Positions 1 to 29,643 of a DNA stretch of 64,000 bases are shown one piece after another. The notes under the pieces are model-generated. The model ran no database searches. It saw only the letters and a program-made list of their open reading frames with translations, and was not told the origin of the DNA. Within the stretch, counting starts at the first letter, position 1. Every line of letters begins with the position of its first letter. Source of the DNA: a virus (lineage: Duplodnaviria > Caudoviricetes); the IMG/VR virus record IMGVR_UViG_3300001598_000052, positions 2,768-66,767 of that record. The stretch is one strand, 5' to 3'. A program made the translations under genes and the position numbers.

Positions 1-145
1 CGAGAGGCTGGACCAGGGAGAAGGCCAAGACCAGTATCATGAATAATTTCCGTTCGTCTTTCTTCGGTTGTGAACTCATCCATATCGGATAGTTAGCGGA
101 TTTTCTCCTGAAGCGATTATATATAATCGCAGAAGGAGGTCATTT

Positions 146-301
146 ATGGACTATGAAGAAGCTTGGAACCGTCTCCTCGAGAATGAACTTGCAACCCAAG
201 ACGAACTCGAGCTCGTGACGGCGATTAACGGGGAAAAACTCGATACCTTAGTGGACATTCTCTATGTCAGGGCAGGTACCAGAGATTTCAACGATATCTA
301 A
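146..301 (+). CDS. Small hypothetical protein (51 aa, MDYEEAWNRLLENELATQDELELVTAING...)
   Basis: Manually translated, below the track cutoff; strong RBS AAGGAGGT upstream; TAA at 299-301. Confidence 0.75.
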   Translation: MDYEEAWNRLLENELATQDELELVTAINGEKLDTLVDILYVRAGTRDFNDI

Positions 302-325
302 CACTAATTTTTCTATCTAAAACCG

Positions 326-354
326 TCTACAATGTAGACGGTTTTTTCTATATT
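326..354 (+). promoter_or_regulatory. Early sigma70-like promoter (TCTACA-N17-TATATT) whose -35 lies in an intrinsic terminator hairpin
   Basis: Hairpin AAAACCGTCTAC-AAT-GTAGACGGTTTTTT directly upstream of TATATT at 349-354; spacer is exactly 17 nt. Confidence 0.65.
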
Positions 355-372
355 ATAATCAGAGGAAAGATT

Positions 373-732
373 ATGTTGACTTTTAAAATTTCAGTTGTAT
401 GGCCGTCGAGTAAACTAGAACATGTCGATTGTGAATTCGTACCTAATAGGCATTTAAACTCTTATGAACCGGTTGCCCGAGAAAGTTGCTTGGAAGGAGA
501 GAACTGGATTGAATTCGACCATGGTTCAGGAGCAAAAGGAAATCGAGGAATATATCCAGGAGCGAACTGCAAACAAATCCTCCGAATCCTTGACGGTAAT
601 GAAATCCTGAAGGAATGGAAACTGGATGAACATCCAGGTGAGAAACGACTCCTTAAGCTTCTGAACGAGTTCAACTCCTGGGCTCACTACTATATGGATG
701 TTCTCGTCCCGCTTGGAGAACTTAATGGGTAA
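373..732 (+). CDS. Hypothetical early protein (119 aa)
   Basis: ORF track; RBS AGAGG; follows a promoter. Confidence 0.75.
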   Translation: MLTFKISVVWPSSKLEHVDCEFVPNRHLNSYEPVARESCLEGENWIEFDHGSGAKGNRGIYPGANCKQILRILDGNEILKEWKLDEHPGEKRLLKLLNEFNSWAHYYMDVLVPLGELNG

Positions 733-1078
733 GAAACACGGGTGTAAATACAATTACTTTATCGAATACAGAGCCAAAGACTGGAATAGGTGGAACACAG
801 TCACATTTCCAATTTCTGACATAAAATACTGTACCTGTAGTAACATTAATAGCTCAAACCATGTCTGGTGCTCTGTCGGAACCGGTTATATAGGGGAATT
901 CACTGTTTTCGGCGGGGAAGCAAGACCTCAGACTGTTCGGTTTCTGTACAAGGATAAGCTCCTGAAGGATATAAACTTTCAGAATGCGAGCATAGAACAG
1001 TGTAAGCAGGAACTGTTTCCATTACTGAAAACGCTGGTTGATTACTATCAGGGACTGGAAAAACTAGAACACCTGTAA
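725..1078 (+). CDS. Hypothetical early protein
   Basis: Start moved to ATG 725 (RBS GGAG, overlaps previous stop). Confidence 0.75.
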   Translation: MGKKHGCKYNYFIEYRAKDWNRWNTVTFPISDIKYCTCSNINSSNHVWCSVGTGYIGEFTVFGGEARPQTVRFLYKDKLLKDINFQNASIEQCKQELFPLLKTLVDYYQGLEKLEHL

Positions 1079-1107
1079 ATAAATGCAAAAAATTTCATCC
1101 TGACGGG

Positions 1108-1136
1108 TTTACGGCTCGCCAGGATTTTTTTATATT
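1108..1136 (+). promoter_or_regulatory. Early promoter TTTACG-N17-TATATT within a terminator-like hairpin
   Basis: ATCCTGACGGG...CTCGCCAGGAT-T-run, then TATATT at 1131-1136. Confidence 0.6.
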
Positions 1137-1144
1137 GTGGGTAT

Positions 1145-2191
1145 ATGACAGCATACCCTAAACAAAAAGAACCTACTCCAGCAGTGGAAGAAGCTAGACT
1201 CCGACCCCTGGCGGACAGTCTCGGAATCGATTACGATGTCTGTGAGACAGAAATCAAAACTAATCCGTCACTAGAAATCTGGAAGAAAAAGCTTATAACC
1301 GGAGAAACGATAGCCAACTCTCGACTCTATTTCTGGATCGAGTGCGATATTCTTTACCATTATATCAGTACGAAAGCTAACTCCCTGATGGACTTTAACA
1401 TTGTGGATAATATCTGCAGGTTTTGTTCTCCAAACGGAATAACACTGTTCTGGATCAGTACCTCAGAATCAGATGATAACTTTAACCTGAGCTTCAAGAC
1501 TAATAATGAACAGGCTAAAAACTTTATCATCCCGAAGACAGAGTTCGTGGATAAGATTCAGACCATTGACTGGGAATCAGTTGTGAACTTAATCGACAAA
1601 AGCTTCTCGGTTGTCGGGGAATCAGTCCAGAACTGGTTCGTGAGTAAGTTACAGTCTGTAACCTGTTCCTGTTCCGGACCGAAGGATTTGTTCCCGATTA
1701 TCAGTGAGAATATTCACCGGGATTCGCGCCTCGCAGTTCAGGGAATAGTTCAGGATTTGGACCCTAAAGATCTAGACCAGCCTGTCACCCCGAAGACAGT
1801 CTTTAACTGGTTATTTGTCTGGCTGGATTTTTTACCTTCCTGTTACACATATAAGGGAAAAGCTTACGTTGACAATGACGGTCGGGTAGAGGTAGAAGAT
1901 TATACTGTCGAATCAGACGAAGCAAAAAGTCCGAGTACAGGTCTGTCCATAACTATGCATTCGCAGAATCTGTCTAAAACTAACACCAAGATTAAAATCT
2001 GTCTCCTGGATAATTTTCTGTCAATCGACATCATGGGTTTGCAGGTTCAGGCACCTATTCCTAAAGGGTTAGAAACTGTCGCCAGAACTAACTGGTTAGA
2101 ACTGTTTACAGAGCTCGAGGAACTAGTCCAGCCCTTGCTCCTGAATGAAGAAGAAATCAAACTGTTACTTGACCTTGAATATAATCTGTGA
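1145..2191 (+). CDS. Hypothetical protein (348 aa, acidic)
   Basis: Long ORF downstream of a promoter; no recognisable motif. Confidence 0.8.
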   Translation: MTAYPKQKEPTPAVEEARLRPLADSLGIDYDVCETEIKTNPSLEIWKKKLITGETIANSRLYFWIECDILYHYISTKANSLMDFNIVDNICRFCSPNGITLFWISTSESDDNFNLSFKTNNEQAKNFIIPKTEFVDKIQTIDWESVVNLIDKSFSVVGESVQNWFVSKLQSVTCSCSGPKDLFPIISENIHRDSRLAVQGIVQDLDPKDLDQPVTPKTVFNWLFVWLDFLPSCYTYKGKAYVDNDGRVEVEDYTVESDEAKSPSTGLSITMHSQNLSKTNTKIKICLLDNFLSIDIMGLQVQAPIPKGLETVARTNWLELFTELEELVQPLLLNEEEIKLLLDLEYNL

Positions 2192-2199
2192 GGAACTGT

Positions 2200-2667
2200 A
2201 TGCATATTAAACGATTACCAACCAACGAGGTAGATGATTTCTGTCACGGGCACATGCTCGACTATATCCCTCACCTCAAGCTTTTGACCCCAGAATCTGA
2301 CCAGACAGTTCTTTGCTGGCCAGAAACTGTCCAGAACGATAACTGGGACGGACAGGCAGAAAATGATCTGGATACTGCCTTTATCAAGTTCAAGCTTTTT
2401 CCTAAACAGACTGGACAGCTTTCTTCAGCTATCGTACTGTGTTCGAATCCAGTCCTTATCCTGAACAATTCAGACGTCGGGAAACAGGTTTGGACCGATT
2501 CAGACGGGAAATTTCTGGTCGGGAACATAGACGTGAAACAGTATTTCGAGTTCCTTGCTCAGAAACTAGAACATTACCAGCTGGAAGATATCATCGATAA
2601 GTTACCAGACGGAACTCTAGCTTTCCACCAAACCTTTAACCCTTTACACGTTTTAAACCATGACTGA
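2200..2667 (+). CDS. Hypothetical protein
   Basis: ATG 2200 with RBS GAGGA; in frame with track ORF 2188. Confidence 0.75.
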   Translation: MHIKRLPTNEVDDFCHGHMLDYIPHLKLLTPESDQTVLCWPETVQNDNWDGQAENDLDTAFIKFKLFPKQTGQLSSAIVLCSNPVLILNNSDVGKQVWTDSDGKFLVGNIDVKQYFEFLAQKLEHYQLEDIIDKLPDGTLAFHQTFNPLHVLNHD

Positions 2668-3001
2668 ACAGCAAACAACCATTCACAGTATCAGAGAACA
2701 GGTAGAAAAAATCACTGACCAGTTCCAGCCCGGGATTCTAGACCGAGACCATATCTATAACGGTTGGAAGTCAGGTGACCTTTACGTCCTATTGAATACG
2801 ATTGACGATGACCCGTTCCATTTCAGAATCAAACTGTTCCAGGAAACTGCTACAGTAGGTGACCAGATCTTTACCTATAACTGTGACGGTGAACCAGAAG
2901 AAATTATCGACTGGTTTAAATCCTGGCCACAGAACATGAAAAATATTTTCCTTGATTACCAGAACAGATACACGAATATGTTCCTGGAAAAAGGATTGTA
3001 G
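2660..3001 (+). CDS. Hypothetical protein (113 aa)
   Basis: ORF track; overlaps the previous stop. Confidence 0.75.
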   Translation: MTEQQTTIHSIREQVEKITDQFQPGILDRDHIYNGWKSGDLYVLLNTIDDDPFHFRIKLFQETATVGDQIFTYNCDGEPEEIIDWFKSWPQNMKNIFLDYQNRYTNMFLEKGL

Positions 3002-3008
3002 ACAGAAA

Positions 3009-3584
3009 ATGACACTGACACACCAGAATGACCGATTAGTAGCTTACCTTGACGGTAAATATAGTTGGGAGTCATCTCCTCGTGATGTTAACAGTAACGG
3101 ACGAATTTATCCTTGGGAAACACTTGCCAAGGTCAAGGACGAAGCAATTCGTACCTGGTCACAGGGAAATCCACACCCACTTGTAAAATCTGACTGGGCA
3201 CTGTTACAGGATGAACTGCTCAAACTATATCCAGAAACAGATACAGTCAGAGTATCTAGTGACAGAAATTATACCAGGTGGGAGTTGGCCAGGGATACGG
3301 CAATCAATGCCAGAGCATCGGTAGTTTTTATTCGCCGGCAGAATCTGGTCAGTAGAGAATGGATATACTATATTCGTCCAAGACTGGAATTATACATTGG
3401 GGATTCAGGCTTTTGCCAAATTTTCGACCGTGAAATAGAGTATAAGACTATGGCCGAGGGTAAGGACTGGTTACTGTCTCACAACCCAGAGACTTACCTG
3501 TCTTCTCTGGTTGACAAGTCTCGTCAGTTTATACTTCAGTCTAAGAATCTGATAACAGCGCTCGAACTCGAAACCAATCTCTAA
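3009..3584 (+). CDS. Hypothetical protein
   Basis: Start moved to ATG 3009 (MTLTHQND...). Confidence 0.75.
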   Translation: MTLTHQNDRLVAYLDGKYSWESSPRDVNSNGRIYPWETLAKVKDEAIRTWSQGNPHPLVKSDWALLQDELLKLYPETDTVRVSSDRNYTRWELARDTAINARASVVFIRRQNLVSREWIYYIRPRLELYIGDSGFCQIFDREIEYKTMAEGKDWLLSHNPETYLSSLVDKSRQFILQSKNLITALELETNL

Positions 3585-3597
3585 AAGGAACAAATCC

Positions 3598-3924
3598 ATG
3601 ATGATTAACCGATTATCTGACCTCTGGACTAAAACGTCAGATTTATTTCCAGATATTAACCCGTATGACGTCAGGATTATGCCTTATGGTGATTATACTG
3701 TCACAGCCGGTGAGGAGGATCAGGTTCCAGGTTCTTATCCTTGGACTATAACTCTGGCAAACGACTCTTACCTTCTGAATAATAACATCTTTATTCGCCA
3801 GTGGGTGGTGGTCGATTCCGAAATCGATTCCTGGCTTGAAAGGTTCCGAGAGAAATTCTCACAGGAAGTAACTGATTATAATAACGAATACCTTGAACTG
3901 TTAATGGATGAAAACATTGATTAA
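3598..3924 (+). CDS. Hypothetical acidic protein
   Basis: ORF track; RBS AAGGA. Confidence 0.75.
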   Translation: MMINRLSDLWTKTSDLFPDINPYDVRIMPYGDYTVTAGEEDQVPGSYPWTITLANDSYLLNNNIFIRQWVVVDSEIDSWLERFREKFSQEVTDYNNEYLELLMDENID

Positions 3925-4222
3925 AGACCTTGACCTTTCTAATCCTGACTTGATCCGTAGTTTGGAACGACAAGCGCGTGACGCTTTAATTACAATAGAT
4001 GAAGACATGAGTTGTATTGTCAACGACAAATATGATAACATTTGTCTTTATAATTTTTGGTCAGGAGTTGTAGACTATGGTGATGAAGATGAGCTTGTTT
4101 TAGAAGTAAATAGTCGTGAGGGTATCGCTCATATATTACTTGAAATGATTGAGCAACCCCAAAAATATATTCTAATGTACAAGGAGCATCAGTTAGCTAA
4201 CTCAATTGACAAATTACCGTAA
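3908..4222 (+). CDS. Hypothetical acidic protein ending ...LANSIDKLP
   Basis: ORF track; followed by a terminator. Confidence 0.75.
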   Translation: MKTLIKDLDLSNPDLIRSLERQARDALITIDEDMSCIVNDKYDNICLYNFWSGVVDYGDEDELVLEVNSREGIAHILLEMIEQPQKYILMYKEHQLANSIDKLP

Positions 4223-4224
4223 CA

Positions 4225-4256
4225 AAAACCCGATCCCGAAGGACCGGGTTCTTTTT
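4225..4256. terminator. Bidirectional intrinsic terminator
   Basis: AAAAACCCG(ATCCCGAAGGAC)CGGGTTCTTTTT between convergent units. Confidence 0.7.
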
Positions 4257-4323
4257 ATCGAGGTCAAACCTTATGTGCTGAACAAGACAAACCAAATCAG
4301 CAGGCCTAAGAGAAACATTTCCA

Positions 4324-4467
4324 TTACTTGAATCTCCTTTTTGTCTTCGTGTTGTTTGCGAACCAGTTTGCTTTGGACTGTCCAGTGATGACAGGTTCCG
4401 GGTTCTTAGTTTCTTCAATTGTTGCAGAGTATGCAAAACGGGCAAAGTTAATTATCTTTTTAAACAT
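4324..4467 (-). CDS. Small basic protein (47 aa, MFKKIINFARFAYS...KTKRRFK)
   Basis: Manually translated; RBS AGGAGG upstream. Confidence 0.65.
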   Translation of the reverse strand: MFKKIINFARFAYSATIEETKNPEPVITGQSKANWFANNTKTKRRFK

Positions 4468-4555
4468 ATTGTAACCTCCTGATATTCTAAATATAGAAAT
4501 TTAATCTTTAATTGTAAATGAAAAGATATTAGATTTTATTCTCCATAAATACAAC

Positions 4556-5008
4556 ATGAATGTAGTAGTTAATCCCGAATCAAACAAGGAGCTCGCCTCC
4601 GAAATAAATGAACTCCTCTCTGACTTCATCCCGAAGACCGAATCCGTCAGAGACAACTGTAAGAAAATTAACCAGGAACTCCAATACGAACTCCTCCAGT
4701 ACGGATATACACCTGAATTTGTATATGGTTTGTACCGTGTTGATTCGATTTACGGGTGGTTGGATCCAGAAGACTTCGAACAGTCAGAACTGGTTAAGGT
4801 CAAGGACATGTTTGGTGATCTGTCCCGTGATTCACTCGAATCGTATGTCGAACAGTTACCAGAAAAGGAACAAGAGTTTTACCTTTACATCCCTCACTGG
4901 TTCTTGGTCGTTGACGATCTGATTCTGGATGCCGCTTCCGACATGTTCAACTGTAAGAACTCTCCAGACAGATACTTCGATTCCGACTGTGACCGAATCA
5001 TCTCGTAA
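4556..5008 (+). CDS. Hypothetical acidic protein (150 aa)
   Basis: ORF track; preceded by ATAAATA. Confidence 0.75.
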   Translation: MNVVVNPESNKELASEINELLSDFIPKTESVRDNCKKINQELQYELLQYGYTPEFVYGLYRVDSIYGWLDPEDFEQSELVKVKDMFGDLSRDSLESYVEQLPEKEQEFYLYIPHWFLVVDDLILDAASDMFNCKNSPDRYFDSDCDRIIS

Positions 5009-5156
5009 AGTTCGTAGCGAAGATACAACCTAAGACGATAAAAATTAAAAGATGTAACATATTCACCTCGATTTTATATTATAAAAATAAAAATTTTGAT
5101 ATAAAATGTAAATAAGAAAAGACCGGAATTTTACTTCCGGTCTTTCTTTATCGAGG

Positions 5157-5414
5157 TCATAAGTTTTTAATCGCCAGGTCTAATATTAGATTGTGTAGTC
5201 TGATTTCCCACCTATTCTGAGTACAGTCAAGCCAGCCTAATAAAGTGTTAGTATCGTCGTTACTGATTTCGATATAGCGACCTTCAACCGCGGGGCGACA
5301 GACATCGCGAAGTAGTTCCTGTTTTATCTCATCCAGTGACTCGCACAGAAAAGTGCTTTCGTGTCTCTTATCTATGCCATTCTTTTTGAATAGTTCAACT
5401 TTATACCAAGCCAT
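5157..5414 (-). CDS. Hypothetical protein ending ...HNLILDLAIKNL
   Basis: ORF track; downstream terminator hairpin at ~5116-5147. Confidence 0.7.
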   Translation of the reverse strand: MAWYKVELFKKNGIDKRHESTFLCESLDEIKQELLRDVCRPAVEGRYIEISNDDTNTLLGWLDCTQNRWEIRLHNLILDLAIKNL

Positions 5415-5427
5415 TAGTTTAATCTCA

Positions 5428-5622
5428 TTAGAACAAACCGGAAATAGACCTGACTATCCATGTAAAGCCATGGACAATGTTCATCAGAATCCCAGTGACC
5501 AGAGCGAGAAGAGATTCAAGACAAGTACACAGATTGGAAGCACAGTGAGAATTCCCGACAATGCAACCGATAATGAACAGTATTACAAGAACAACCAAAA
5601 GAACTTTAACAAACTTTGACAT
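5428..5622 (-). CDS. Small membrane protein (two hydrophobic segments)
   Basis: MSKFVKVLLVVLVILFIIGCIVG...; RBS GAGG upstream of ATG 5622. Confidence 0.65.
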   Translation of the reverse strand: MSKFVKVLLVVLVILFIIGCIVGNSHCASNLCTCLESLLALVTGILMNIVHGFTWIVRSISGLF

Positions 5623-5715
5623 ATTAACCTCGTTGTTTACATAAGTAAATATAGTTAAATTAAAACCGTTTGTAAACAAGAAAAGATTGGAATTTTATTT
5701 CCAATCAATCCTAAA

Positions 5716-5997
5716 TTACATACGAGCTTTGCGAGCACGCTTGGCTGCTTCAATGTCATCGTTAAAAAAGAATTGAATCATATCCTGAACGTATTCATTG
5801 TTCTTGATGAACTTCACTTCGTCTTCAGGATAGATAATCTCACCACCATCGACACGGTAAGCGATCACCGAATCACCCCACTTTCCGTAATGGTCAGCGA
5901 ATTGAAAGAAGAATGCTTTGACCGATTCTGCATCAGTATGAGTGATAGACCATGGAACAAAGTTGTCGCTGAAACGTTTCATGTATTCGATTTTCAT
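5716..5997 (-). CDS. Hypothetical protein behind conserved leader repeat
   Basis: Start MKIEYMKR at 5997; an in-frame upstream ATG lies in the leader. Confidence 0.7.
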   Translation of the reverse strand: MKIEYMKRFSDNFVPWSITHTDAESVKAFFFQFADHYGKWGDSVIAYRVDGGEIIYPEDEVKFIKNNEYVQDMIQFFFNDDIEAAKRARKARM

Positions 5998-6073
5998 ACC
6001 AAACTCGTAAAAGTAATTGTAATCATTCATTCGATTACATTGTAAATATAGCATTTTTAATTAAAAATGTAAA
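5998..6073 (-). promoter_or_regulatory. Promoter (TTTACA-N17-TATATT) plus conserved hairpin leader, copy 1
   Basis: TATATTTACAATGTAATCGAATGAATGATTACAAT on the minus strand; near-identical to 6474-6526 and 7393-7445. Confidence 0.75.
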
Positions 6074-6157
6074 TAAAAACAATATTTAATTTTTATATCA
6101 GGCAACTAGTTTAAACTTATAAAAAATAATTCTATATTTGAAGCAAGAGGTACTATT

Positions 6158-6433
6158 ATGAGTATTTTTGATAAATATAATCGTGATTTACGAAAGATTA
6201 TTCCCAACGGAGTAATCGAAGTTTATACTGTCAAAGACGGTGAAGAAACTCTGGCCATGTCAAGTGAAATGACTCATGATTCAAGATTTGCCGATGTCAT
6301 TATCCAGAACGTTAAAGACGGGGCCAAGACAGTTTTCAAGTATAAGACTCGTGATGAAGTCATTAATGAAGCGCTCGATTATTTGAGTCAGTTTAAGCCG
6401 ACTGAATGTTACTTGTGGAATGACGATAAATAA
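6158..6433 (+). CDS. Hypothetical protein (91 aa)
   Basis: ORF track; RBS GAGGT; TATATT upstream. Confidence 0.75.
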   Translation: MSIFDKYNRDLRKIIPNGVIEVYTVKDGEETLAMSSEMTHDSRFADVIIQNVKDGAKTVFKYKTRDEVINEALDYLSQFKPTECYLWNDDK

Positions 6434-6450
6434 AATCTAAACTTTTTTAA

Positions 6451-6526
6451 TTTACAACTTTTGATTATTTTTTTATATTTAAACCGTAATCGAATGAACG
6501 ATTACAATAATTACTTTGAGGAAACT
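6451..6526 (+). promoter_or_regulatory. Promoter (TTTACA-N17-TATATT) plus conserved hairpin leader, copy 2
   Basis: -35 at 6451-6456, -10 at 6474-6479, inverted repeat GTAATCG-AATGAA-CGATTAC. Confidence 0.75.
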
Positions 6527-7309
6527 ATGAAGAATAACTTCAATACTCTCTATGTCAACTACAATGCAAACCTGAAGACTTTCAATGAAATGAATCGCAG
6601 CTGGTCCGGTGCAACTTATCAGCAGAAGCTTACTGTAGCTAATGCTGTTAATCATGTCGGTCGTATTCTCTGGGGTCTTTCTTATCGTATGCCTCGTGAA
6701 ATTTATGTCTTCTTGAATCCTCCGAAGTGCACTCCCAAGCCGCAGACTGTTTTTGTACCGAAGACCACTGTTGTTAACAAGCCTGTTGTTAAGCCGGCAA
6801 TGCCGGCAATGCCTGCAAAGCCCAGGGTTGTACCGACTGCCGCAACAAGCCCGATTACTTTCAACCAGTCTGCAATTACTAACGGCAACAGCAATGTAAT
6901 CGAAGTCAGTGATGTAAATCATGTTGTAGCATCTACTAACAAGCGCAAGAAGCCTGCAAAGAAGCATGACTGGACCGATGTTGAAATCCAGCATCTTCTT
7001 CACGGTGATGTTGCTTGGCTTGAACAGGTTGCTAAAGTGACTTATGACCAGATGATGAGCAAGACCAATGACTTAGGTTATCGTTTTAACTATGGCCAGC
7101 CTGTATCTAAGCCGAAGGTTTACAATCGTCTCGTTATCGCATGTCATCCTGACTGGGAAAACGATATGAAGAACGGTGACTACAGCAAGATGCTGCAGAA
7201 CAAGATTCGTCTTAGTGCAATTTGCAAGTGTGCAAAGAAGCTCGGTTATAACATCCCGGCTCAATATAAGAACTGGGCTAGCAAGGCTTCTATTGCTGCT
7301 AACGGTTAA
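6527..7309 (+). CDS. Hypothetical basic protein with Pro/Ala-rich linker; possible DNA-binding C-terminal half
   Basis: RBS GAGG before ATG 6527; WTDVEIQHLL resembles a Myb/HTH-like start (weak). Confidence 0.7.
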   Translation: MKNNFNTLYVNYNANLKTFNEMNRSWSGATYQQKLTVANAVNHVGRILWGLSYRMPREIYVFLNPPKCTPKPQTVFVPKTTVVNKPVVKPAMPAMPAKPRVVPTAATSPITFNQSAITNGNSNVIEVSDVNHVVASTNKRKKPAKKHDWTDVEIQHLLHGDVAWLEQVAKVTYDQMMSKTNDLGYRFNYGQPVSKPKVYNRLVIACHPDWENDMKNGDYSKMLQNKIRLSAICKCAKKLGYNIPAQYKNWASKASIAANG

Positions 7310-7317
7310 AAGACCTG

Positions 7318-7352
7318 GCTCGATTGATCACATAGATTAATCGAGCTTTTTT
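7318..7352 (+). terminator. Intrinsic terminator
   Basis: GCTCGATTGATC-ACATA-GATTAATCGAGC-TTTTTT. Confidence 0.75.
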
Positions 7353-7369
7353 ATTTTATAATATTTTGA

Positions 7370-7445
7370 TTTACAAAAAGTTCAGAATTAGCTATATTTA
7401 AAATGTAATCGAATGAATGATTACAATAATTATTTCGAGGCTAAT
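7370..7445 (+). promoter_or_regulatory. Promoter (TTTACA-N17-TATATT) plus conserved hairpin leader, copy 3
   Basis: -35 at 7370-7375, -10 at 7393-7398, same leader sequence as copies 1 and 2. Confidence 0.75.
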
Positions 7446-7835
7446 ATGGAATTTATCAACATCGTTAAAAACGTCAGCATCATTGCAATGATTTGTGAAC
7501 AGCGTGTGAACATTACGCTTGATCAGAAACACAACTGTGCATCGTTCACTACTGTGAATGAAAATCAACAGAAACAACACTGGAATGTGTATCGTCATCC
7601 TGTAGACGATATGATTTTTGTCGTTCTTATTGGTGTCGGTAATAACGAAGACGATATGTCTACTTGGGAAAGATTCAGCGAATCTGCAGGTTGGGCACGT
7701 TGTGCATATGACTTCAGTGACATCAACGATTACGGTCAGGATGCAATCGATGATATCTTGTGTGCAATCGAAGTCGCTACTAACAGCATCATGAAAGACT
7801 TGAAGCTCAAGAAGATTGTCAGTATGCTTAAGTAA
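7446..7835 (+). CDS. Hypothetical protein
   Basis: RBS GAGG before ATG 7446. Confidence 0.75.
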   Translation: MEFINIVKNVSIIAMICEQRVNITLDQKHNCASFTTVNENQQKQHWNVYRHPVDDMIFVVLIGVGNNEDDMSTWERFSESAGWARCAYDFSDINDYGQDAIDDILCAIEVATNSIMKDLKLKKIVSMLK

Positions 7836-8460
7836 CGATGAACGAATCAGACTGGACTGACTAGTCTAGTCAGTCTGGTCTCTTCATTGCTATCCGGACT
7901 CCTACGTTTTAACGACGCATTTGCTGACTAAATATGGCTAAATGTCAGCATATCTGACGTATATTACGACATACGTATAGGCAGTATATATGGCCTATTT
8001 TAGGCCTATATGACGACGTCCCAGTACATACCGGGGGCCCGGGGGGCCATGCCTTCCAAAAAAAGTATTAAGCTGCATATATACCGGGGCCCGGGGCCTA
8101 TTTTTTATATACGCCTTATAGGCCGAGGTTTTTTCTCTCAAAGAAGGCCGGGAAAAATTTTTTACTTTTAGAAAAAATTTCAGGATTTTTGCCTAATGGG
8201 TTAGATATATATTATGAAATTCCCCTTAAGGATAATTATATGGGAAACCATAGGAAAAATTGAAAAGGCCAGGTTTCAAAAAAATTTTCCAGAAATTTTT
8301 TACCTATGGGGAAAAATTTGGGTTTTTTGTATATTATTATATGGAAATAGCCTTAAGGATAATTATATAGGAAATGGGTGAAAAAACGGGAAGGGCTGGG
8401 TTTTGAAAAAATTTTCCAGAAATTTTTTGCCTATGGGGAATTTCTTAGATAGATAGTAAT
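7836..8460. repeat. Non-coding region with a perfect 10-bp hairpin, GC-rich GGCC clusters and a ~127-bp tandem duplication; candidate origin or genome end
   Basis: GACTGACTAG-T-CTAGTCAGTC; ATACCGGGG(G)CCCGGGG(GG)CC twice; CCTTAAGGATAATTATAT at 8224 and 8351; AAAAAATTTTCCAGAAATTTTTT.CCTATGGGGA at ~8279 and ~8406. Confidence 0.75.
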
Positions 8461-8496
8461 TGGTTATAATATAATAAATTAAGAAAATATAAAGGG

Positions 8497-8525
8497 TTGA
8501 CAATAGTCAATCCTTTTATTATATT
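8497..8525 (+). promoter_or_regulatory. Early promoter TTGACA-N17-TATATT; -35 inside a hairpin arm
   Basis: AAAGGGTTGAC-AATA-GTCAATCCTTTT then TATATT at 8520-8525. Confidence 0.75.
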
Positions 8526-8532
8526 GTAATAT

Positions 8533-8907
8533 ATGGGACATGAAAATTATATTATTTTGTATAATAAGATAATTGAATCTATTAATTATGAATATTTTAA
8601 GGGCGGGCGAACTAATAATAAGTGGAAAGTCGAGGAGCATAATGGCTATATGGTGACATATTTGCGGATGGGGCATAAACTGGAGGCTGAAGAACTACGT
8701 ATTAATTATGCTCATGATAATTATATTAGGCTGGTATATATGCGAGGGCAGTTGTTTACACCTGCCACTACGTGTTATGATATTAATGTGAACATGATGG
8801 TATTTTATAGGCATATCGAGGAATTAATCGGGTGTAACGATGATTACTGTATGAGGAAAGTATTTCATAATATGGATATGGAGAGTGCGCTTGGCCATCT
8901 GGAATAA
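8533..8907 (+). CDS. Hypothetical early protein with C-terminal motif (...HNMDMESALGHLE)
   Basis: ORF track. Confidence 0.75.
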   Translation: MGHENYIILYNKIIESINYEYFKGGRTNNKWKVEEHNGYMVTYLRMGHKLEAEELRINYAHDNYIRLVYMRGQLFTPATTCYDINVNMMVFYRHIEELIGCNDDYCMRKVFHNMDMESALGHLE

Positions 8908-8913
8908 TATATC

Positions 8914-9274
8914 ATGGTGAACAAGACGAGATATAATAATTTTAATAAGGCGTTAGACCATATAGAAAAAGCTGTTAAAAATAAGAGTTGGATTACGTTG
9001 TCCCGAGCTAAATTTGGCAGTGTTTTAAGACTGCGGGACGCAAATGACTATGTTAAGCTTTTTATAGTTTATGATCCATGTTCTAATAAAATACATATGT
9101 CATTTGTGGCAAAACATATGTTAGACTGTTATGATGGAGTAATTAAGGATATAAAGGATGCCAGTACTTTAAAGGAATATATAAGTAAAATCATACAGTT
9201 TTCTGAAACTGGGGAAAGTAGTTACAATGATCCATAACATTAATATTGAGAAATCACTGGATGAACTGGGATGA
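8914..9274 (+). CDS. Hypothetical protein; frame 0 stops at 9237, +1 frame from the TTTT run at 9199-9202 continues to 9274
   Basis: +1 frame reads LKLGKVVTMIHNINIEKSLDELG*, matching the C-terminal motif of its neighbours. Confidence 0.6.
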
Positions 9275-9293
9275 ATTTATCGGGTAAATAGTT

Positions 9294-9602
9294 ATGAAGT
9301 ATGAAAAATTGCAAATAAGTCGAGAGATGATATTGGACTATGTTAAAAAATTAGGTTATGACATAACCAGTGACTTTATAAATTTGTATGAATTTATCAT
9401 AATATTCGGTAGTACAGGCTGGACGCTTTACCGGTCGGGCAATGTAAAACAAGGTGAATGGTCGTGGGTAGACATTTGTTCAGAATTTTATGACCAGATG
9501 ACGGACTACATGAAACTTGATGCGGCACTGAGTAATCCAGGTCAATTTGCTATTCAAGAGAATAATAAAATAATTAATGACATATTAGATAAGCTAGACT
9601 AG
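9294..9602 (+). CDS. Hypothetical protein with C-terminal motif (...NNKIINDILDKLD)
   Basis: ORF track. Confidence 0.75.
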   Translation: MKYEKLQISREMILDYVKKLGYDITSDFINLYEFIIIFGSTGWTLYRSGNVKQGEWSWVDICSEFYDQMTDYMKLDAALSNPGQFAIQENNKIINDILDKLD

Positions 9603-9608
9603 AAAGGG

Positions 9609-9637
9609 TTGACATAAGTCAGCCTTTTTATTATATT
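9609..9637 (+). promoter_or_regulatory. Early promoter TTGACA-N17-TATATT overlapping a terminator hairpin
   Basis: AAAGGGTTGAC-ATAA-GTCAGCCTTTTT then TATATT at 9632-9637. Confidence 0.75.
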
Positions 9638-9644
9638 GTATTAT

Positions 9645-10016
9645 ATGAAAGATGAGATTATTACAAAACAGTACATTGCCAGGCAGACTAATTTTCGTAA
9701 TTGTATCAGTAACTGGATTATAGACTCTTTTTATGGGAAAATAAAGGATAAAACTGGTTCAACCTATGATGTTAACCGGGGTCGTTATCATATTTTATTA
9801 AATAATACATCAAAGGGGTACTGGTTACGAGTTGAAACGGATAATTTAGTTATAAGTGTGGCTCGTGGTTGGGAAATTTTGGACAGTTTTAAGTTTTCAT
9901 CATTTGACCGGTTGACTGAAACAGTATATGAATTACTTAAATGTTCTGAATATAAAGACACAATTTTGGTGTTAAACAACAGTATTACATTGGATACATT
10001 GGACAAGTTAGACTAA
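9645..10016 (+). CDS. Hypothetical protein with C-terminal motif (...NNSITLDTLDKLD)
   Basis: Start moved to ATG 9645. Confidence 0.75.
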   Translation: MKDEIITKQYIARQTNFRNCISNWIIDSFYGKIKDKTGSTYDVNRGRYHILLNNTSKGYWLRVETDNLVISVARGWEILDSFKFSSFDRLTETVYELLKCSEYKDTILVLNNSITLDTLDKLD

Positions 10017-10053
10017 TGAACTTAGGGACGCTGTTGATAAACTTGGATAATAC

Positions 10054-10323
10054 ATGACTATTAAACTACGGATGGAAAATTTTTCAAGGGATAAGATATA
10101 TTACTCGTGTAGTGATATCGAATATCAATCATGCTCATATTGGGGTTTACCTGGATTTAGTTTTAACGGTATTTTTAAAGATACAAAAACTAAAACACAT
10201 GAATATGCAATTGTCGGGGATGAAATACAATATAATAATAAAAGATTTACCTTAACCTATGATAATTTGCTTTACCACATATACAATTTGCAAACTCTTG
10301 TAGCGTTGGAGAATATAAAATAA
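10054..10323 (+). CDS. Hypothetical protein with C-terminal motif (...YNLQTLVALENIK)
   Basis: ORF track. Confidence 0.75.
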   Translation: MTIKLRMENFSRDKIYYSCSDIEYQSCSYWGLPGFSFNGIFKDTKTKTHEYAIVGDEIQYNNKRFTLTYDNLLYHIYNLQTLVALENIK

Positions 10324-10563
10324 ATGGAAATTAAATATAGGATAGCCGACAGTGACGATATTGGAATGATCGATGTTTATGATGTCGGCATATGGCGTAG
10401 TAATATTTTTAGTTACATGATATTAAATACGGCTAAAGACTTGCGTATGTTTGTAAGTGATGAAGTAATTGATTACGGTTATGGTTGGAAACGACTAACG
10501 ACTGAAAACATAGAATATCATGTCAGACAAATTAGTAACCTTATCGCAATGGAAAAACTATGA
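10324..10563 (+). CDS. Hypothetical protein with C-terminal motif (...RQISNLIAMEKL)
   Basis: ORF track; abuts the previous stop. Confidence 0.75.
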   Translation: MEIKYRIADSDDIGMIDVYDVGIWRSNIFSYMILNTAKDLRMFVSDEVIDYGYGWKRLTTENIEYHVRQISNLIAMEKL

Positions 10564-10904
10564 TTAAGTTTGATATTGAACGACTTACACGCGGGCAAGA
10601 TATTGCAGCAAACATTAATAATTATGTTAATTGCCAACGAGATGATATATGGCAATATGTCGGTATATTCCATGGTAGGTATTGTTATCAAAGTAAAGCC
10701 GAAAAATTTGTAATTGAAGTATATGACGGTATAAATATATACCTAACTATGCCTGGACGATGTTATCCAGATTACGATGCTGCACTTGGTTCTGATATGT
10801 ATAAATTAGAAATTAAAGACATTCTTGAAACCGCCGGTTTAAAAAGCGTATGGGCAAAAGTTCATAATGATACCATTGGAAAAATACTTAAGGCTCTTGA
10901 TTAA
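10560..10904 (+). CDS. Hypothetical protein with C-terminal motif (...HNDTIGKILKALD)
   Basis: ORF track; ATGA overlap. Confidence 0.75.
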   Translation: MIKFDIERLTRGQDIAANINNYVNCQRDDIWQYVGIFHGRYCYQSKAEKFVIEVYDGINIYLTMPGRCYPDYDAALGSDMYKLEIKDILETAGLKSVWAKVHNDTIGKILKALD

Positions 10905-10916
10905 CGGAAATAATTA

Positions 10917-11066
10917 ATGATTGAAACGTTTTGCAGAATTATTGGAATTGGAATTGTAGCATTTTTTATTTTAGTTATAACATTCTGCTTGTTTGCCAAT
11001 TATTGGTGGTATGTTTACGATTATTTTAAATGGTATAGTTATGGAAAAGCATTTAAAAAAATGTAA
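10917..11066 (+). CDS. Small membrane protein (49 aa)
   Basis: Manually translated MIETFCRIIGIGIVAFFILVITFCLFANYWWY... Confidence 0.6.
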   Translation: MIETFCRIIGIGIVAFFILVITFCLFANYWWYVYDYFKWYSYGKAFKKM

Positions 11067-11454
11067 GCATATTTTTACAGATGAATTAGGATGGCGTCAT
11101 TCACCAAAGTTTTATTCATATCTACATACAAAAACCGGTTTAACTGTTGACATAACTCCTGTATTGTGGGATGATATGGGCTGGCGGGCAGAACGGATTA
11201 AATTTGGAGATACCCGTAGAACATGGGTTAGTACATGTGATATAAAAAATGAACATGACTATGGATTAGTATCATTTTGGAAAGAACATTCAATCAATAT
11301 TCATTATAGGCCCTGGCGACAAAAAGGTAGAGCTAAAGGTCAGTGGTTATGCTTAATGAATGATATTGCAAAGAAACCGGAAAAATATAAAAAGTTGGTT
11401 GAATTACATTGTTATAATGTTGACTTAAAAAATACATTAAATAAATTAGATTAA
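11041..11454 (+). CDS. Hypothetical protein with C-terminal motif (...YNVDLKNTLNKLD)
   Basis: Start moved to ATG 11041. Confidence 0.75.
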   Translation: MEKHLKKCKHIFTDELGWRHSPKFYSYLHTKTGLTVDITPVLWDDMGWRAERIKFGDTRRTWVSTCDIKNEHDYGLVSFWKEHSINIHYRPWRQKGRAKGQWLCLMNDIAKKPEKYKKLVELHCYNVDLKNTLNKLD

Positions 11455-11456
11455 TA

Positions 11457-11831
11457 ATGTTTGAAAAAATTAAATCATTTTATAAGCGTTGGATTAAGTA
11501 TCGCAGACGACCTAAATATACTGATATAGGGTTAGATTATGCATCAGCTACATTATACAAGGCAGGTTGGGAATTACGTGAATTATGGGCAATGTCATCA
11601 GTCTTACAGTTTCAGAAAGATCTAATTTATTTAGATGTTCATTGGTTAGGCGGGTATAATGTTTGCATATATGAAAATGGTGACCTAGGTAAACGAATTA
11701 ATGACCATAGTTTATCTGAAGACCAACTTAAAATCTATATAGACCTTGTTAAAAATTGTAGTAATTTAGAACAATGCATTATTGCCATACATAATTATAA
11801 GATGAATAACATTTTGAACAAGTTGGATTAG
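11457..11831 (+). CDS. Hypothetical protein with C-terminal motif (...HNYKMNNILNKLD)
   Basis: ORF track. Confidence 0.75.
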   Translation: MFEKIKSFYKRWIKYRRRPKYTDIGLDYASATLYKAGWELRELWAMSSVLQFQKDLIYLDVHWLGGYNVCIYENGDLGKRINDHSLSEDQLKIYIDLVKNCSNLEQCIIAIHNYKMNNILNKLD

Positions 11832-11832
11832 T

Positions 11833-12066
11833 ATGAAAGTAATTATTAATGGTAAAATGATGCCTGATGCTGAACGGGTATTTAAGGTTGGGCGTAATAT
11901 TTGTTTTTTCTATCATTCAGAATTAGGGACAATGGAAACTTATATATGTCCAATCGGTAGTCAGTTGACATGCGGAGATTTTCTTGATACTACAATTACA
12001 CCATATAATGCAGAGCCGATCATGGAACAAATAAATAATTACCTTGCAATTAATTCATTAGATTAA
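11833..12066 (+). CDS. Hypothetical protein with C-terminal motif (...EQINNYLAINSLD)
   Basis: ORF track. Confidence 0.75.
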   Translation: MKVIINGKMMPDAERVFKVGRNICFFYHSELGTMETYICPIGSQLTCGDFLDTTITPYNAEPIMEQINNYLAINSLD

Positions 12067-12070
12067 ATGG

Positions 12071-12078
12071 TATAAATA
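12071..12078 (+). promoter_or_regulatory. T4-type late promoter TATAAATA
   Basis: Exact T4 gp55 consensus upstream of 12099; the same motif precedes many late genes (15875, 27828, 28522, 29664, 32855, 38089, 59812). Confidence 0.75.
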
Positions 12079-12098
12079 GATTAATAGGAGAATTTATT

Positions 12099-12836
12099 AT
12101 GACAAATCAAATGGATGAAGCTCGTAAGGTTTTGTTAAAAAACGGTTACGGTATAATTAAAGAAGGATATGAAGACGCAACTGCTACTCAGATGGCTGGT
12201 ATGAAGGAACGTCTTCAGAATTATATTGACACTGGGTCCGAATTTAAAATTAAGTCTAAGTCAAATAAACTTGGATTGGTTGTTAATATCATTAAGGATG
12301 AAAATGACGGCTGGTTAATTTTGTATAACTCAAATACTAGTCGTATTATCGCACAGGCTGACAATATTGATTCAATGATTAAACAAATTTATGATATTCA
12401 GGCGCATCTTGAACAGTATCAGAAAGAAGAAAGTTTCTTACTTGATATGAAAGGTATGGTCGCACAGGCATTGAAAGAATATCCGTATGTAATTATCCCG
12501 AATACTGACCCGTTTACTGATTATTTTGAAGGTAATCCTGATATTCCGCGAGTAAAAAAGGCAACAGTATATCTACATGGTCAAGCTGAAAGTGATGCTG
12601 GATTTGATATATCTGTAATTCTACCTGGTACTGTTAAAGAAACTTCTCTGCCAGATGATAAAACAAAGGTTGGTGTTGGTATTGTAACATTTGATGGTGT
12701 TAAGCAAGGTACAATGATGACTTGGCCATTGGGTGAACTACCTGAACGTAAGACTGGATTGATTGTTTACAATAGCGATAAAACAGCAATACAATATGCA
12801 GATAAGTTATTCATGAATCCACCGCGTGTATTTTAA
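12099..12836 (+). CDS. Late protein with N-terminal DEARKVLLKNGY motif; putative internal virion protein
   Basis: Late promoter, RBS AGGAG, shared N-terminal motif. Confidence 0.7.
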   Translation: MTNQMDEARKVLLKNGYGIIKEGYEDATATQMAGMKERLQNYIDTGSEFKIKSKSNKLGLVVNIIKDENDGWLILYNSNTSRIIAQADNIDSMIKQIYDIQAHLEQYQKEESFLLDMKGMVAQALKEYPYVIIPNTDPFTDYFEGNPDIPRVKKATVYLHGQAESDAGFDISVILPGTVKETSLPDDKTKVGVGIVTFDGVKQGTMMTWPLGELPERKTGLIVYNSDKTAIQYADKLFMNPPRVF

Positions 12837-12915
12837 TTCATAATAAAAATTAAATAAAAACCAGCAATTAATTTTGCTGGTTTATTTTTATATAAAAATT
12901 GCTATATTATTAATT

Positions 12916-13350
12916 ATGGAAAACGTATTTTGTAGTTTATTTAATTGTGAAAGTTTAGAAATGATTGCAGATTGGGTAGCTAAACATCCTCATTGTACAA
13001 AAATAAATACTTACAGTTTTGATTTTTGGGTTAACAAGCCAGATAATCATTATGGAAGAAAACCGCCATTATCAGTTAGGTTATCAAACACATATGCATT
13101 AGCCGATAGTACTCCTGTTTATCAAGCTGATATTTTGATATCATATATTCCATATGGTTTAGACCAACAAGATTGCTGGAATACTGTATTATATAGAAGT
13201 ACGATCATTGATGATAGGTTTAGTTTTAGTGAAAAGTTTAAAAGATCATTTGAAATGTTATATAAACCCATCGCTGATGGTAAACCAGAAAAATATGAAG
13301 CATTAGTAGAAAATCTACGAAATTTAGCAGCGCTAAATAATCTTGATTAA
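12916..13350 (+). CDS. Hypothetical protein with C-terminal motif (...ENLRNLAALNNLD)
   Basis: Start moved to ATG 12916; TATATT upstream. Confidence 0.75.
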   Translation: MENVFCSLFNCESLEMIADWVAKHPHCTKINTYSFDFWVNKPDNHYGRKPPLSVRLSNTYALADSTPVYQADILISYIPYGLDQQDCWNTVLYRSTIIDDRFSFSEKFKRSFEMLYKPIADGKPEKYEALVENLRNLAALNNLD

Positions 13351-13703
13351 TATTTCGGAGTAAACTTATAATCTAATTCTTTTGGCTCGCGGTAATCGCC
13401 TTCAAAGCATTCAAAGAAGGTATCTCCGCGGGCATTTTTATATTCTACTGCATAACCATGTATATCAGAAGTCGGATATATATGGATTATCTGAAGCTTA
13501 TTGTCACCTGCTATGCTATGATGCCCATATTTGCATTCTGGATGATATATAAGGCGATGATGAGTTGGACAAAAAGAAAGTACCACCTGAGAATTTAAAC
13601 GCGGCCAGAGCTCGCGTGGGACTATATGATGGTACTCAATCTCATTCCGATTTTCTGTGCAATAATCACAATTTGGCCAATGGCACTTATAAACAATTTG
13701 CAT
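13347..13703 (-). CDS. HNH endonuclease
   Basis: CHWPNC...EYHHIVP...N...LSFCPTHH zinc/HNH pattern. Confidence 0.8.
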   Translation of the reverse strand: MQIVYKCHWPNCDYCTENRNEIEYHHIVPRELWPRLNSQVVLSFCPTHHRLIYHPECKYGHHSIAGDNKLQIIHIYPTSDIHGYAVEYKNARGDTFFECFEGDYREPKELDYKFTPKY

Positions 13704-13762
13704 ATTCTATATATGAAAAATGACTGGAAAATCCAGTCATTTTTAGTTAATATAATTCTAAA

Positions 13763-14635
13763 CTATCCGTCAATTTCAACGTCTGCGAAATAACCTGCAG
13801 TCTTAAATACATTTGTTGATTCATTAATTTTAACTTCACAACCGACGTTTTTAAGTTCTTTAATTGCATGTTCAATATTCTTTACTGTGCCAGTTAAACA
13901 GATACCGCCTTCATTGTCTATTGAATACTTTACGGATTCGCCGTCAAGACCAATTTCGGCAACTTCAACATCATCAACCCAAATATTTTTTTCACTAATT
14001 GGTTCATTAGACGCAGCAGGAGCAGATGTGCCAGTTGCTACCGGGCCGTTCGATTGAACTTCCATGCCATATCTACGTGCCAAGTTTGCTTTTGCTTTTT
14101 CTGCTTGTTCAGGTGTAGCATTGAATGTCATAGACATTGCTTCTTCGTCAAATACCGGTTTATCAGTAATACCGCTCATAATTAATAGCGCCTTCAAAAC
14201 GCCGGGCTTAATGCCTTCATCATAATATGTAGTATAAGAACTAACCTTTGCAGATGCACGTGGAGCGCGAGGTTCAGATGATGTAGTGTGAGTTCCGTTA
14301 CCCTTACTGACAAGAGTAGCATCATCGTTTTCACATGCTTCAAGATATCCAGCATCAATGAAGATACGCAAAGTTTCATTATCATAATCGGATAGTTTGC
14401 CCGCGTCACCTAAGCGCTTTAATGCTTTATAATTAGCAATATAACTGGAACGGTTTATCATTTCGGGAGACTGTGCTTTACCACGTTCATAATTTGAACG
14501 TCTAGAGTCGATGCTTGCCATATCACGTTCTAGTCGTGCAGCTTCTTCACAATCAGACTTTGCTGCACGAGCAGCTGACATTTCAGTAATATAACCAGCA
14601 TGGTTTAAAATTTTTTGTGCTTCATTAATATTCAT
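13763..14635 (-). CDS. Late protein, paralog of 14714-15790; putative internal head protein
   Basis: Shared blocks DMASIDS..SN.E.GKA, GYL.ACE.DATLV and VDDVE.AE.GL; N-terminal EAQKILNHAGY motif. Confidence 0.75.
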   Translation of the reverse strand: MNINEAQKILNHAGYITEMSAARAAKSDCEEAARLERDMASIDSRRSNYERGKAQSPEMINRSSYIANYKALKRLGDAGKLSDYDNETLRIFIDAGYLEACENDDATLVSKGNGTHTTSSEPRAPRASAKVSSYTTYYDEGIKPGVLKALLIMSGITDKPVFDEEAMSMTFNATPEQAEKAKANLARRYGMEVQSNGPVATGTSAPAASNEPISEKNIWVDDVEVAEIGLDGESVKYSIDNEGGICLTGTVKNIEHAIKELKNVGCEVKINESTNVFKTAGYFADVEIDG

Positions 14636-29199: not shown

Positions 29200-29643
29200 T
29201 TAAAGCATTGGAGTAACTTTCAATTTATTATGCATTTCTTGATTAATAACATTTCTAAATAAGTTACATAACCATGGAGCTGCATCTTCTAATGTATCTC
29301 TAATCATTAATGCCCGCTCCCAACCATCAGTTTCAGTAATTCTAGTATTATCATAACCGAAACTTTCCCAGTCAGTTTTAATTTGCGCTTTTACATCTTC
29401 GCCAAGTTTTTTAATCATACTTGCATCTAATGTAACATTCTTAATGCCAAATTCTTTTTGAATCACTCTCGGTAGAACTTCTGAAGAGATTTCTTTAACT
29501 GGTGTTTCGCGCTGTTCAGTGGCATTTGCATTACCTAACATTGCGCCTAGTGCTAATGCTCCAACACCTAATGCTCGTCCAAATCTTCCTTCAACAATAT
29601 AACCATTGTCTTCAAGGATTGCTTTTGCTTCTAATAGTGTCAT
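29200..29643 (-). CDS. Late protein: N-terminal motif followed by a signal-peptide-like hydrophobic stretch
   Basis: MTLLEAKAILEDNGYIVE-GRFGRALGVGALALGAMLGNANA. Confidence 0.75.
   Translation of the reverse strand: MTLLEAKAILEDNGYIVEGRFGRALGVGALALGAMLGNANATEQRETPVKEISSEVLPRVIQKEFGIKNVTLDASMIKKLGEDVKAQIKTDWESFGYDNTRITETDGWERALMIRDTLEDAAPWLCNLFRNVINQEMHNKLKVTPML

Follow-up and report, generated by a model that had tools for sequence, protein, structure and literature searches.

A conserved C-terminal helix on small early proteins of an uncultured giant phage points to a probable diverged, tandemly expanded gene family

The 64,000-nucleotide stretch of DNA analyzed here (the window) corresponds to positions 2768-66767 of an IMG/VR virus record that is 66.8 kb long, and its early region contains an array of small tandem genes (8533-13350) whose products end in much the same way, with an Asn followed at a characteristic distance by two Leu residues close to the stop codon. 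A first-pass annotation of this DNA took them for unrelated proteins provided with a short, portable tag. The locus raises the question whether the shared tail is an addressing element on unrelated proteins, or the best preserved part of proteins that have a common origin. We favor the second answer, at a probability of roughly 0.6: the open reading frames (ORFs) with the motif are probably diverged copies of one early small-protein multigene family, confined to a clade and expanded in tandem.

CheckV estimates the completeness of the record at 17%, which identifies it as a fragment of a very large (jumbo) uncultured phage. Its products include a GroEL-like chaperonin, a T4-type neck protein and the nuclease half of a gp17-like terminase. 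No close phage was present in the phages collection (terminase identity at most 31%), and a megablast of positions 8000-14000 against the same collection gave no match. Relatives were found in IMG/VR via the terminase, among them G001, a record of 411,059 bp that is rated 98% complete and whose terminase is 72-78% identical to that of the window. A further record of 291 kb (G002) represents the same phage (99.9% identity) and adds no diversity. The window is syntenic with G001 over a large part of its length (14.7-63.6 kb, against 296-340 kb in G001), and its early part corresponds to G001 from approximately 340 to 362 kb. With BLASTP, nothing in G001 matches the array genes of the window at E < 1e-3.

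In the array, 10 of the 12 tandem plus-strand ORFs end in N-x6-[LI]-x2-L followed by zero to two residues. The strict pattern N.{6}L..L.$ is found in 7 of the 12, and elsewhere it was counted only 11 times, in each case away from a terminus, over 19,698 positions in 97 ORFs (binomial P 6e-12); the enrichment at C-termini that the first-pass annotation had proposed as a check is thus evident. A 16-residue scoring matrix was trained on 35 tails from G001 only and is thus independent of the window. With this matrix, each of the 10 intact array ORFs scores p < 0.002. Outside the array, the ORFs at 5157-5414 (minus strand) and 7413-7835 score p < 0.001 and those at 698-1078, 3598-3924 and 3908-4222 p < 0.01, with 2660-3001, 2952-3584 and 1145-2191 being marginal (p 0.01-0.04). 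Downstream of 13350, in the late or structural part, no ORF out of 57 falls below p 0.03, which agrees with the earlier statement that the motif is limited to early genes with sigma70-type promoters. Altogether, 11 of the 12 consecutive plus-strand ORFs of the array are members (77-158 amino acids (aa), head to tail and of similar size), five to eight early ORFs within 698-7835 have a weaker version of the motif, and about 17 ORFs of the window are carriers. The list given originally needs some revision: the weak tail at 732 did not hold up (p 0.22), and a tail ending at 3924 and an internal copy in ORF 2188-2667 (residues 124-139) had been overlooked. The fixed spacing described for the motif applies to most tails, but those ending at 10563 and 12066 are spaced approximately three residues shorter.

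The conserved Leu positions are encoded by CTT, CTG, CTA, TTA and TTG, the Asn and Asp codons vary as well, and the DNA after the stop codon is different at every gene. This places the constraint on the protein, and the motif is a genuine protein-level constraint and not a DNA repeat, as had been proposed. A nucleic-acid signal at the gene ends, such as a terminator, promoter, ribosome-binding or recombination site that translates into the motif, is very improbable. There is little space between the genes, and hairpins with promoter-like sites follow two of the gene ends, as would suit such a signal; nevertheless, besides the varying codons and downstream DNA, a matrix derived from a phage without DNA similarity to this region recovers the motif. 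More improbable still is an effect of chance or composition, by which AT-rich genes rich in Asn, Lys, Leu, Ile and Asp would often end in this manner. The GC content is indeed low (31-33% between 8 and 14 kb), but the seven strict terminal occurrences stand against the low background given above, 51 of the 754 ORFs of the two phages reach a matrix score of at least 8 where 0.3 are expected (internal matches: 19 in 132,559 positions), and the motif is absent from the 57 late ORFs, which are similar in composition.

The presence of the motif in related phages, which had also been suggested as a check, is borne out by G001, where approximately 49 small ORFs, about 8% of the total, carry it convincingly. 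These ORFs cluster at 17-28 kb, 340-348 kb and 381-405 kb, with others dispersed over the rest of the genome. Carriers measure 79-241 aa, with a median of 115. For 58 of 60 carriers no Pfam or PHROG family was found (these are ORFans of 79-197 aa, with no Pfam match at E 0.01 or better). The two exceptions, a thymidylate-kinase-like protein and an endonuclease, look like chance matches, since their own domain covers the motif (the thymidylate-kinase profile reaches residue 176 of 180). When a profile of the 60 proteins was compared with 1.84 billion representative proteins, only 12 were found at E < 1e-3; all of these (61-144 aa) resemble the G001 array and were matched through to the C-terminus. 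In view of this small number, the family appears limited to a narrow, uncultured clade of giant phages. Neither Pfam nor PHROG has an entry for it, and it is without previous description. A word-based homolog search with ORF 11457-11831 returned only its own cluster, no related loci were found via the protein of 14714-15790 or via P0012, and the flanks of six other related contigs, which are structural regions, contained no family member. A six-frame search of five related records with a 34-position tail profile yielded nothing; as a direct scan of the G001 genome then found the tails, this blank reflects low sensitivity.

The conserved unit is longer than the motif as first described. Similarity in register continues for 9 aa upstream of the Asn (z 6.4 against shuffled controls), so that the unit comprises at least 22 aa, and some pairs in the window align over 36-42 aa by BLASTP. 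The view that the proteins share no other similarity thus goes too far for the region next to the motif, but it is fair for the bodies that remain once the last 22-24 aa are removed. Across 49 tails the consensus spans 21 positions, numbered from the conserved Asn as 0. Upstream, it consists of N/D-P-E/D-K/R at -10 to -7, a hydrophobic residue at -6, Ala at -4 and a hydrophobic residue at -2; position 0 is Asn in 30 of 49 and Gln in 7 of 49 tails. Downstream follow a hydrophobic residue or Thr at +3, Ala or Ile at +6, Leu or Ile at +7 (49 of 49), D/E/N at +8, Lys at +9 and Leu at +10 (43 of 49). The zero to two residues after the last Leu vary: they are absent in 12 tails, D in 11, P in 5, L in 4, E in 4, G in 3 and PG in 3, with the rest having other residues. 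An a/d hydrophobic pattern extends only from -4 to +10, and further upstream the hydrophobic residues move to the other face of the helix. A leucine-zipper-like coiled coil, which needs such a pattern over at least four heptads, was rejected, as it is seen over approximately two.

Evidence for paralogy is clearest in G001. In its array at 18.8-24.8 kb, which has the same tail, the members can be aligned over their entire length, and seven are linked by BLASTP at E < 1e-4. Their alignment includes a common start (M-I-K-V-Y...), a block '...Y-I-E-I-N-G-x-K-F-x-Y-K-D-I...' and then the tail. A hidden Markov model (HMM) was built from this array without any window sequence (family A), and its top six matches in the window are six early motif ORFs. 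Two of these matches cover nearly the whole length of the protein: 10054-10323 (E 0.0018, residues 13-87) and 9636-10016 (E 0.046).

Structure prediction with AlphaFold2 (AF2) suggests how the unit could be integrated in the protein. In the model of ORF 11457-11831, strands are predicted at residues 48-72 and helices at 88-99 and 104-123, with a predicted local distance difference test (pLDDT) score above 90 for residues 88-124. For ORF 9636-10016, strands are predicted at 55-86 and helices at 90-100 and 106-125 (pLDDT of the C-terminal half 85-94; predicted template modeling score 0.60). Both models have the same layout: a beta-meander leads, with no linker, into two helices, of which the terminal one has approximately 20 residues (pLDDT > 85) and contains the motif in its latter half. 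The amphipathic terminal helix that the first-pass annotation had postulated is thus recovered in both models. No known fold can be named for either model (best Z 5.1 and 5.8 among PDB representatives; best E 0.03 in BFVD). At least 12 PDB chains, all weak neighbors, occur in both top-50 lists (e.g., 9vel_r, 6u08_B, 8vl4, 2ra8_A, 3nct_A and 6b46_I), which fits two similar models. Profile A3 gave nothing below E 0.95 against PDB sequences, and the model stored in the ESM Atlas for ORF 9294-9602 (pLDDT 0.43) had no usable neighbor. In a homodimer prediction for residues 44-124 of ORF 11457-11831, the fold of the chain itself was uncertain.

Based on these models, we propose that each copy, of approximately 80-200 aa, would form a single domain, with a variable N-terminal part, a beta-meander of three or four strands, a short helix and the 20-residue amphipathic terminal helix. 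The motif described initially would correspond to the last three turns of that helix. The two C-terminal helices may have been kept because together they make up a hydrophobic core over one sheet face, leaving the rest of the domain free to diverge fast and to give rise to a varied set of early proteins, which probably bind host or defense factors. That the conserved Leu positions are encoded by five different codons points to old duplicates maintained by purifying selection. The notion of a short portable tag on unrelated proteins is difficult to reconcile with a unit of at least 22 aa, the shared predicted topology, the ORFan nature of the carriers, the full-length paralogs of G001, and ends that vary or are extended.

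Several observations weigh against a single family. Without their last 22-24 aa, the window members show no significant similarity to one another or to the G001 families, and the case for common descent of the bodies consequently draws on the predicted topology, the arrangement of the genes and analogy. The agreement between the two AF2 models is not independent, since nearly the same family alignment was used for both, and confidence is low in the N-terminal third of each model (pLDDT < 50). Moreover, packing of a core does not by itself account for the conservation of polar residues (N at 0 in 30 of 49 tails, D/E/N at +8, K at +9), which could instead be the sign of a surface for binding. 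Strain variants are 96-99% identical, which is too near for a comparison of substitution rates between body and tail.

These points bear on the main alternative, which we consider possible but rather unlikely, namely that the terminal helix is a shared docking element, by which the proteins, paralogs or not, would bind one common partner (a hub, adaptor or scaffold of phage or host) or pair among themselves, so that many different bodies would gather at a single site. The helix is the only part kept across approximately 60 proteins and between two phages without detectable orthologs of the array genes, its polar positions are conserved, and it occurs on about 8% of the ORFs in G001. By analogy with leucine zippers, the last 11 residues could also be read as a heptad core in which the Asn at 0 takes an 'a' position, with a hydrophobic residue at +3 and Leu at +7 and +10. 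On the other hand, no candidate partner was identified, and the helix is predicted to lie within a compact domain, with no linker. Upstream of the Asn, hydrophobic residues occur on both faces (-6 and -2 versus -4), as in a buried segment. The carriers have no known enzymatic or other domain and a narrow size range, and the residues after the last Leu vary, with natural extensions being tolerated. We are somewhat more doubtful still about the C-terminal helix as a common docking or pairing module through which approximately 1 in 12 proteins of these giant phages would join the same hub, or each other. If true, this would amount to a combinatorial set of early effectors organized by one helix, an organization of a phage proteome without prior description.

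With a multigene family as the favored explanation, the array can be compared to others known from large phages. Phages G and 121Q are reported to have arrays in which more than 30 similar genes stand in tandem (Hua et al., 2017; PMC5646251), and for Bacillus phage G an expansion of roughly 35 copies of a zinc ribbon is reported (Iyer et al., 2021; PMC7824862). The earlier assertion that nothing of this form has been described goes too far, as diverged early paralogs arrayed in tandem are known from jumbo phages (PMC5646251), and on present evidence this is not a new kind of system. Like the arrays of phage G and the 121Q/RaK2 type, the genes described here are small, arranged head to tail by the dozens among the early genes of a phage with several hundred kb of DNA, diverged beyond easy recognition, without a Pfam family and probably host-acting. 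In contrast to the 121Q/RaK2-type arrays, they would form a different family, with N-x6-L-x2-L at the very C-terminus, belong to another, uncultured clade, and are partly scattered over the genome and not in one block. The family would thus be a second, unrelated example beside the RaK2/121Q-type arrays of early paralogs, which suggests that such arrays are general in jumbo phages. Giant phages devote a large share of their genome to arrays of tiny early genes whose function is not known, and a single conserved C-terminal helix provides a simple handle for finding all members.

Large eukaryotic DNA viruses also have lineage-specific tandem expansions of fast-diverging small proteins that are thought to act on the host, such as MGF110 and MGF360 of African swine fever virus. 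The viruses and folds are unrelated to those of the phage family, and the likeness is one of analogy only.

Short terminal peptides shared by several proteins are known as well. The capsid targeting sequence of T4 is N-terminal, is found on late proteins packaged in the virion, and is cleaved off by the prohead protease, and C-terminal degrons of the ssrA/ClpX type and clamp-binding tails of the QL[SD]LF type are unstructured peptides on unrelated folds. The tail described here resembles them in being a short conserved terminal element common to several proteins, but it differs in that it is half of a long helix predicted inside a domain, its ends vary and its carriers look like one family. 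A C-terminal tag or degron of the ssrA/ClpX, PDZ or tail-specific-protease type, which has a free fixed end, was rejected, given the variable ends, the six additional residues in the strain variant P0016 and the extension of ORF 2188-2667. An unstructured peptide on unrelated folds does not agree with a 20-residue helix predicted with pLDDT > 85 directly after another helix, nor with 58 of 60 carriers lacking a known domain. A T4-type capsid targeting sequence was discarded because the motif is C-terminal and occurs in 0 of 57 late or structural ORFs, and a sliding-clamp tail because the consensus [AI]-[LI]-[DEN]-K-L contains neither the Gln nor the Phe of QL[SD]LF.

Comparisons with known domains gave at most weak matches. 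For a HicA- or dsRBD-like alpha-beta-beta-beta-alpha arrangement, there was no Pfam match at E 0.01 or better among 60 members, and fold matches did not exceed Z 5.8. Both AF2 models align weakly with AcrF1 (6b46_I), PsiB (3nct_A) and the DddI immunity protein (6u08_B) over 63-86 residues at Z 3.8-5.5, values that, lying below 6, are within the range of the tool for unrelated chains, so that membership in these groups is not claimed. These proteins are of similar size and have a similar layout of a beta-sheet plus helices, but show no sequence similarity.

The members of the array, all on the plus strand, are as follows in gene order. ORF 8533-8907 encodes 124 aa with the tail FHNMDMESALGHLE, which has the strict motif and a p of 0.0004 with the G001-trained matrix. 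The second gene, 8914-9274, is frameshifted: ORF 8914-9237 lacks the motif, and the +1 frame reads ...MIHNINIEKSLDELG up to a stop at 9272-9274. Orthologs in other strains (P0045, P0049 and P0050) are intact, with 118-120 aa and the end ...HNINIEKSLDEL, from which we conclude that the record contains a frameshift of one nucleotide, either a mutation or an assembly error. ORF 9294-9602 (102 aa, tail NNKIINDILDKLD) is recognized by both the strict motif and the matrix and matches ORF 11457-11831 over 36 aa (BLASTP E 2e-3 in a small database). The next gene, 9636-10016 (126 aa, tail NNSITLDTLDKLD), is one of the two modeled with AF2. It is followed by 10054-10323 (89 aa, tail YNLQTLVALENIK; matrix p 0.002) and 10324-10563 (79 aa, tail RQISNLIAMEKL; matrix p 0.0015), the latter having the shorter spacing between the Asn and the Leu pair; the two match each other over 36 aa (BLASTP E 7e-4).

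Further downstream, ORF 10560-10904 (114 aa, tail HNDTIGKILKALD) has both the strict motif and a matrix match, and its tail is kept in nine strain variants save for one T-to-A change. The same holds for the strict motif and matrix match of ORF 10993-11454, which encodes at most 153 aa (the start codon is uncertain) and ends in YNVDLKNTLNKLD. ORF 11457-11831 (124 aa, tail HNYKMNNILNKLD) is the second modeled gene, its predicted terminal helix of residues 104-123 corresponding to nucleotides 11766-11825. Of its 12 strain variants, P0016 (7 contigs) reads through the stop codon and adds 6 aa after ...LNKLD. ORF 11833-12066 (77 aa, tail EQINNYLAINSLD; matrix p 0.0017) again has the shorter spacing. 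In other strains (P0052 and P0053; 12 contigs), a frame change within the motif of this ORF (...INNYLAKFIRLN...) removes the tail and fuses the ORF to the start of 12099-12836, with a product of 207 aa. ORF 12099-12836 itself (245 aa, matrix p 0.37) is the sole non-member within the array and has an ortholog at G001 162286-163008 (47% identity, E 3e-42). The last member, 12874-13350, has at most 158 aa and the strict motif in its tail ENLRNLAALNNLD, which is the best match to the G001 tails (score 23 with the G001-only matrix).

Outside the array, the minus-strand member at 5157-5414 (85 aa) has two modules in tandem, an internal one (ISNDDTNTLLGWLD) and a terminal one (LHNLILDLAIKNL; matrix p 0.0002). 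Probable members on the plus strand are 7413-7835 (140 aa, tail KDLKLKKIVSMLK; matrix p 0.0009), 3598-3924 (108 aa, tail NNEYLELLMDENID; matrix p 0.006) and 3908-4222 (104 aa, matrix p 0.009). The tail of the last, HQLANSIDKLP, is in the ...IDKLP style of G001, and the family-A HMM matches it in the tail only (E 0.078). ORF 3598-3924 matches 2660-3001 over 77 aa (BLASTP E 1e-3). ORF 698-1078 (plus strand, 126 aa, tail YYQGLEKLEHL; matrix p 0.007) is a weak member. In the plus-strand ORF 2188-2667 (159 aa), the module is internal (residues 124-139, ...YQLEDIIDKL, nucleotides 2557-2604; matrix score 19.6), and 19-20 residues follow its last Leu. The homolog in G001 (342603-342983; BLASTP E 2e-6) stops at the module and ends ...NLKLVEIIDEL. 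The early region is not uniform in GC content, which drops from 42% (window positions 1-4000) to 31-33% (8000-14000), and the weaker versions of the motif are located in the GC-richer part.

Two sigma70-like sites on the plus strand, both TTGACA-17-TATATT, are associated with the array. The site at 8497-8525 is located just upstream of ORF 8533-8907, with its -35 element within a terminator-like hairpin at 8491-8516, and the site at 9609-9637 is within a hairpin at 9602-9629. The elements 8491-8525 and 9602-9637 are near-identical, with TTGACA in the loop and stem of the hairpin (AAAGGGTTGACA...CCTTT) followed by TATATT, and from the sequence this looks like a combined intergenic terminator and early promoter. 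A different cassette, consisting of a TTTACA-17-TATATT promoter, a leader and the first approximately 13 codons, is present three times with 84-86% identity, at 5992-6052 (minus strand), 6474-6529 and 7393-7448 (both plus strand). As this cassette is repeated, the ORFs 5716-6054 (minus strand), 6461-7309 and 7413-7835 all start with ...M-N-D-Y-N-N-Y-F-E, and their remainders differ.

At the other end of proteins, an N-terminal motif M-x-L-x-E-A-x-x-[IL]-L-x-x-x-G-[YF] is found on otherwise different, mostly late proteins of both phages. In the window it occurs at 12099 and, on the minus strand, in 13763-14635, 14714-15790, 29200-29643 and 56999-57646; in G001 it occurs at 162286, 199881, 226169, 326173 and 338888. 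A link between this L-x-E-A-x-x-L-L-x-x-G-Y motif and the C-terminal tail was rejected, since the tail is present on just 1 of the 18 proteins that have the N-terminal motif. Finally, two paralogs of the T4-type neck protein in the window (29679-30527 and 47247-48026) both end in ...P-K-Y-Y-[DN]-P-F-D-G-W, and the pair is also present in G001.

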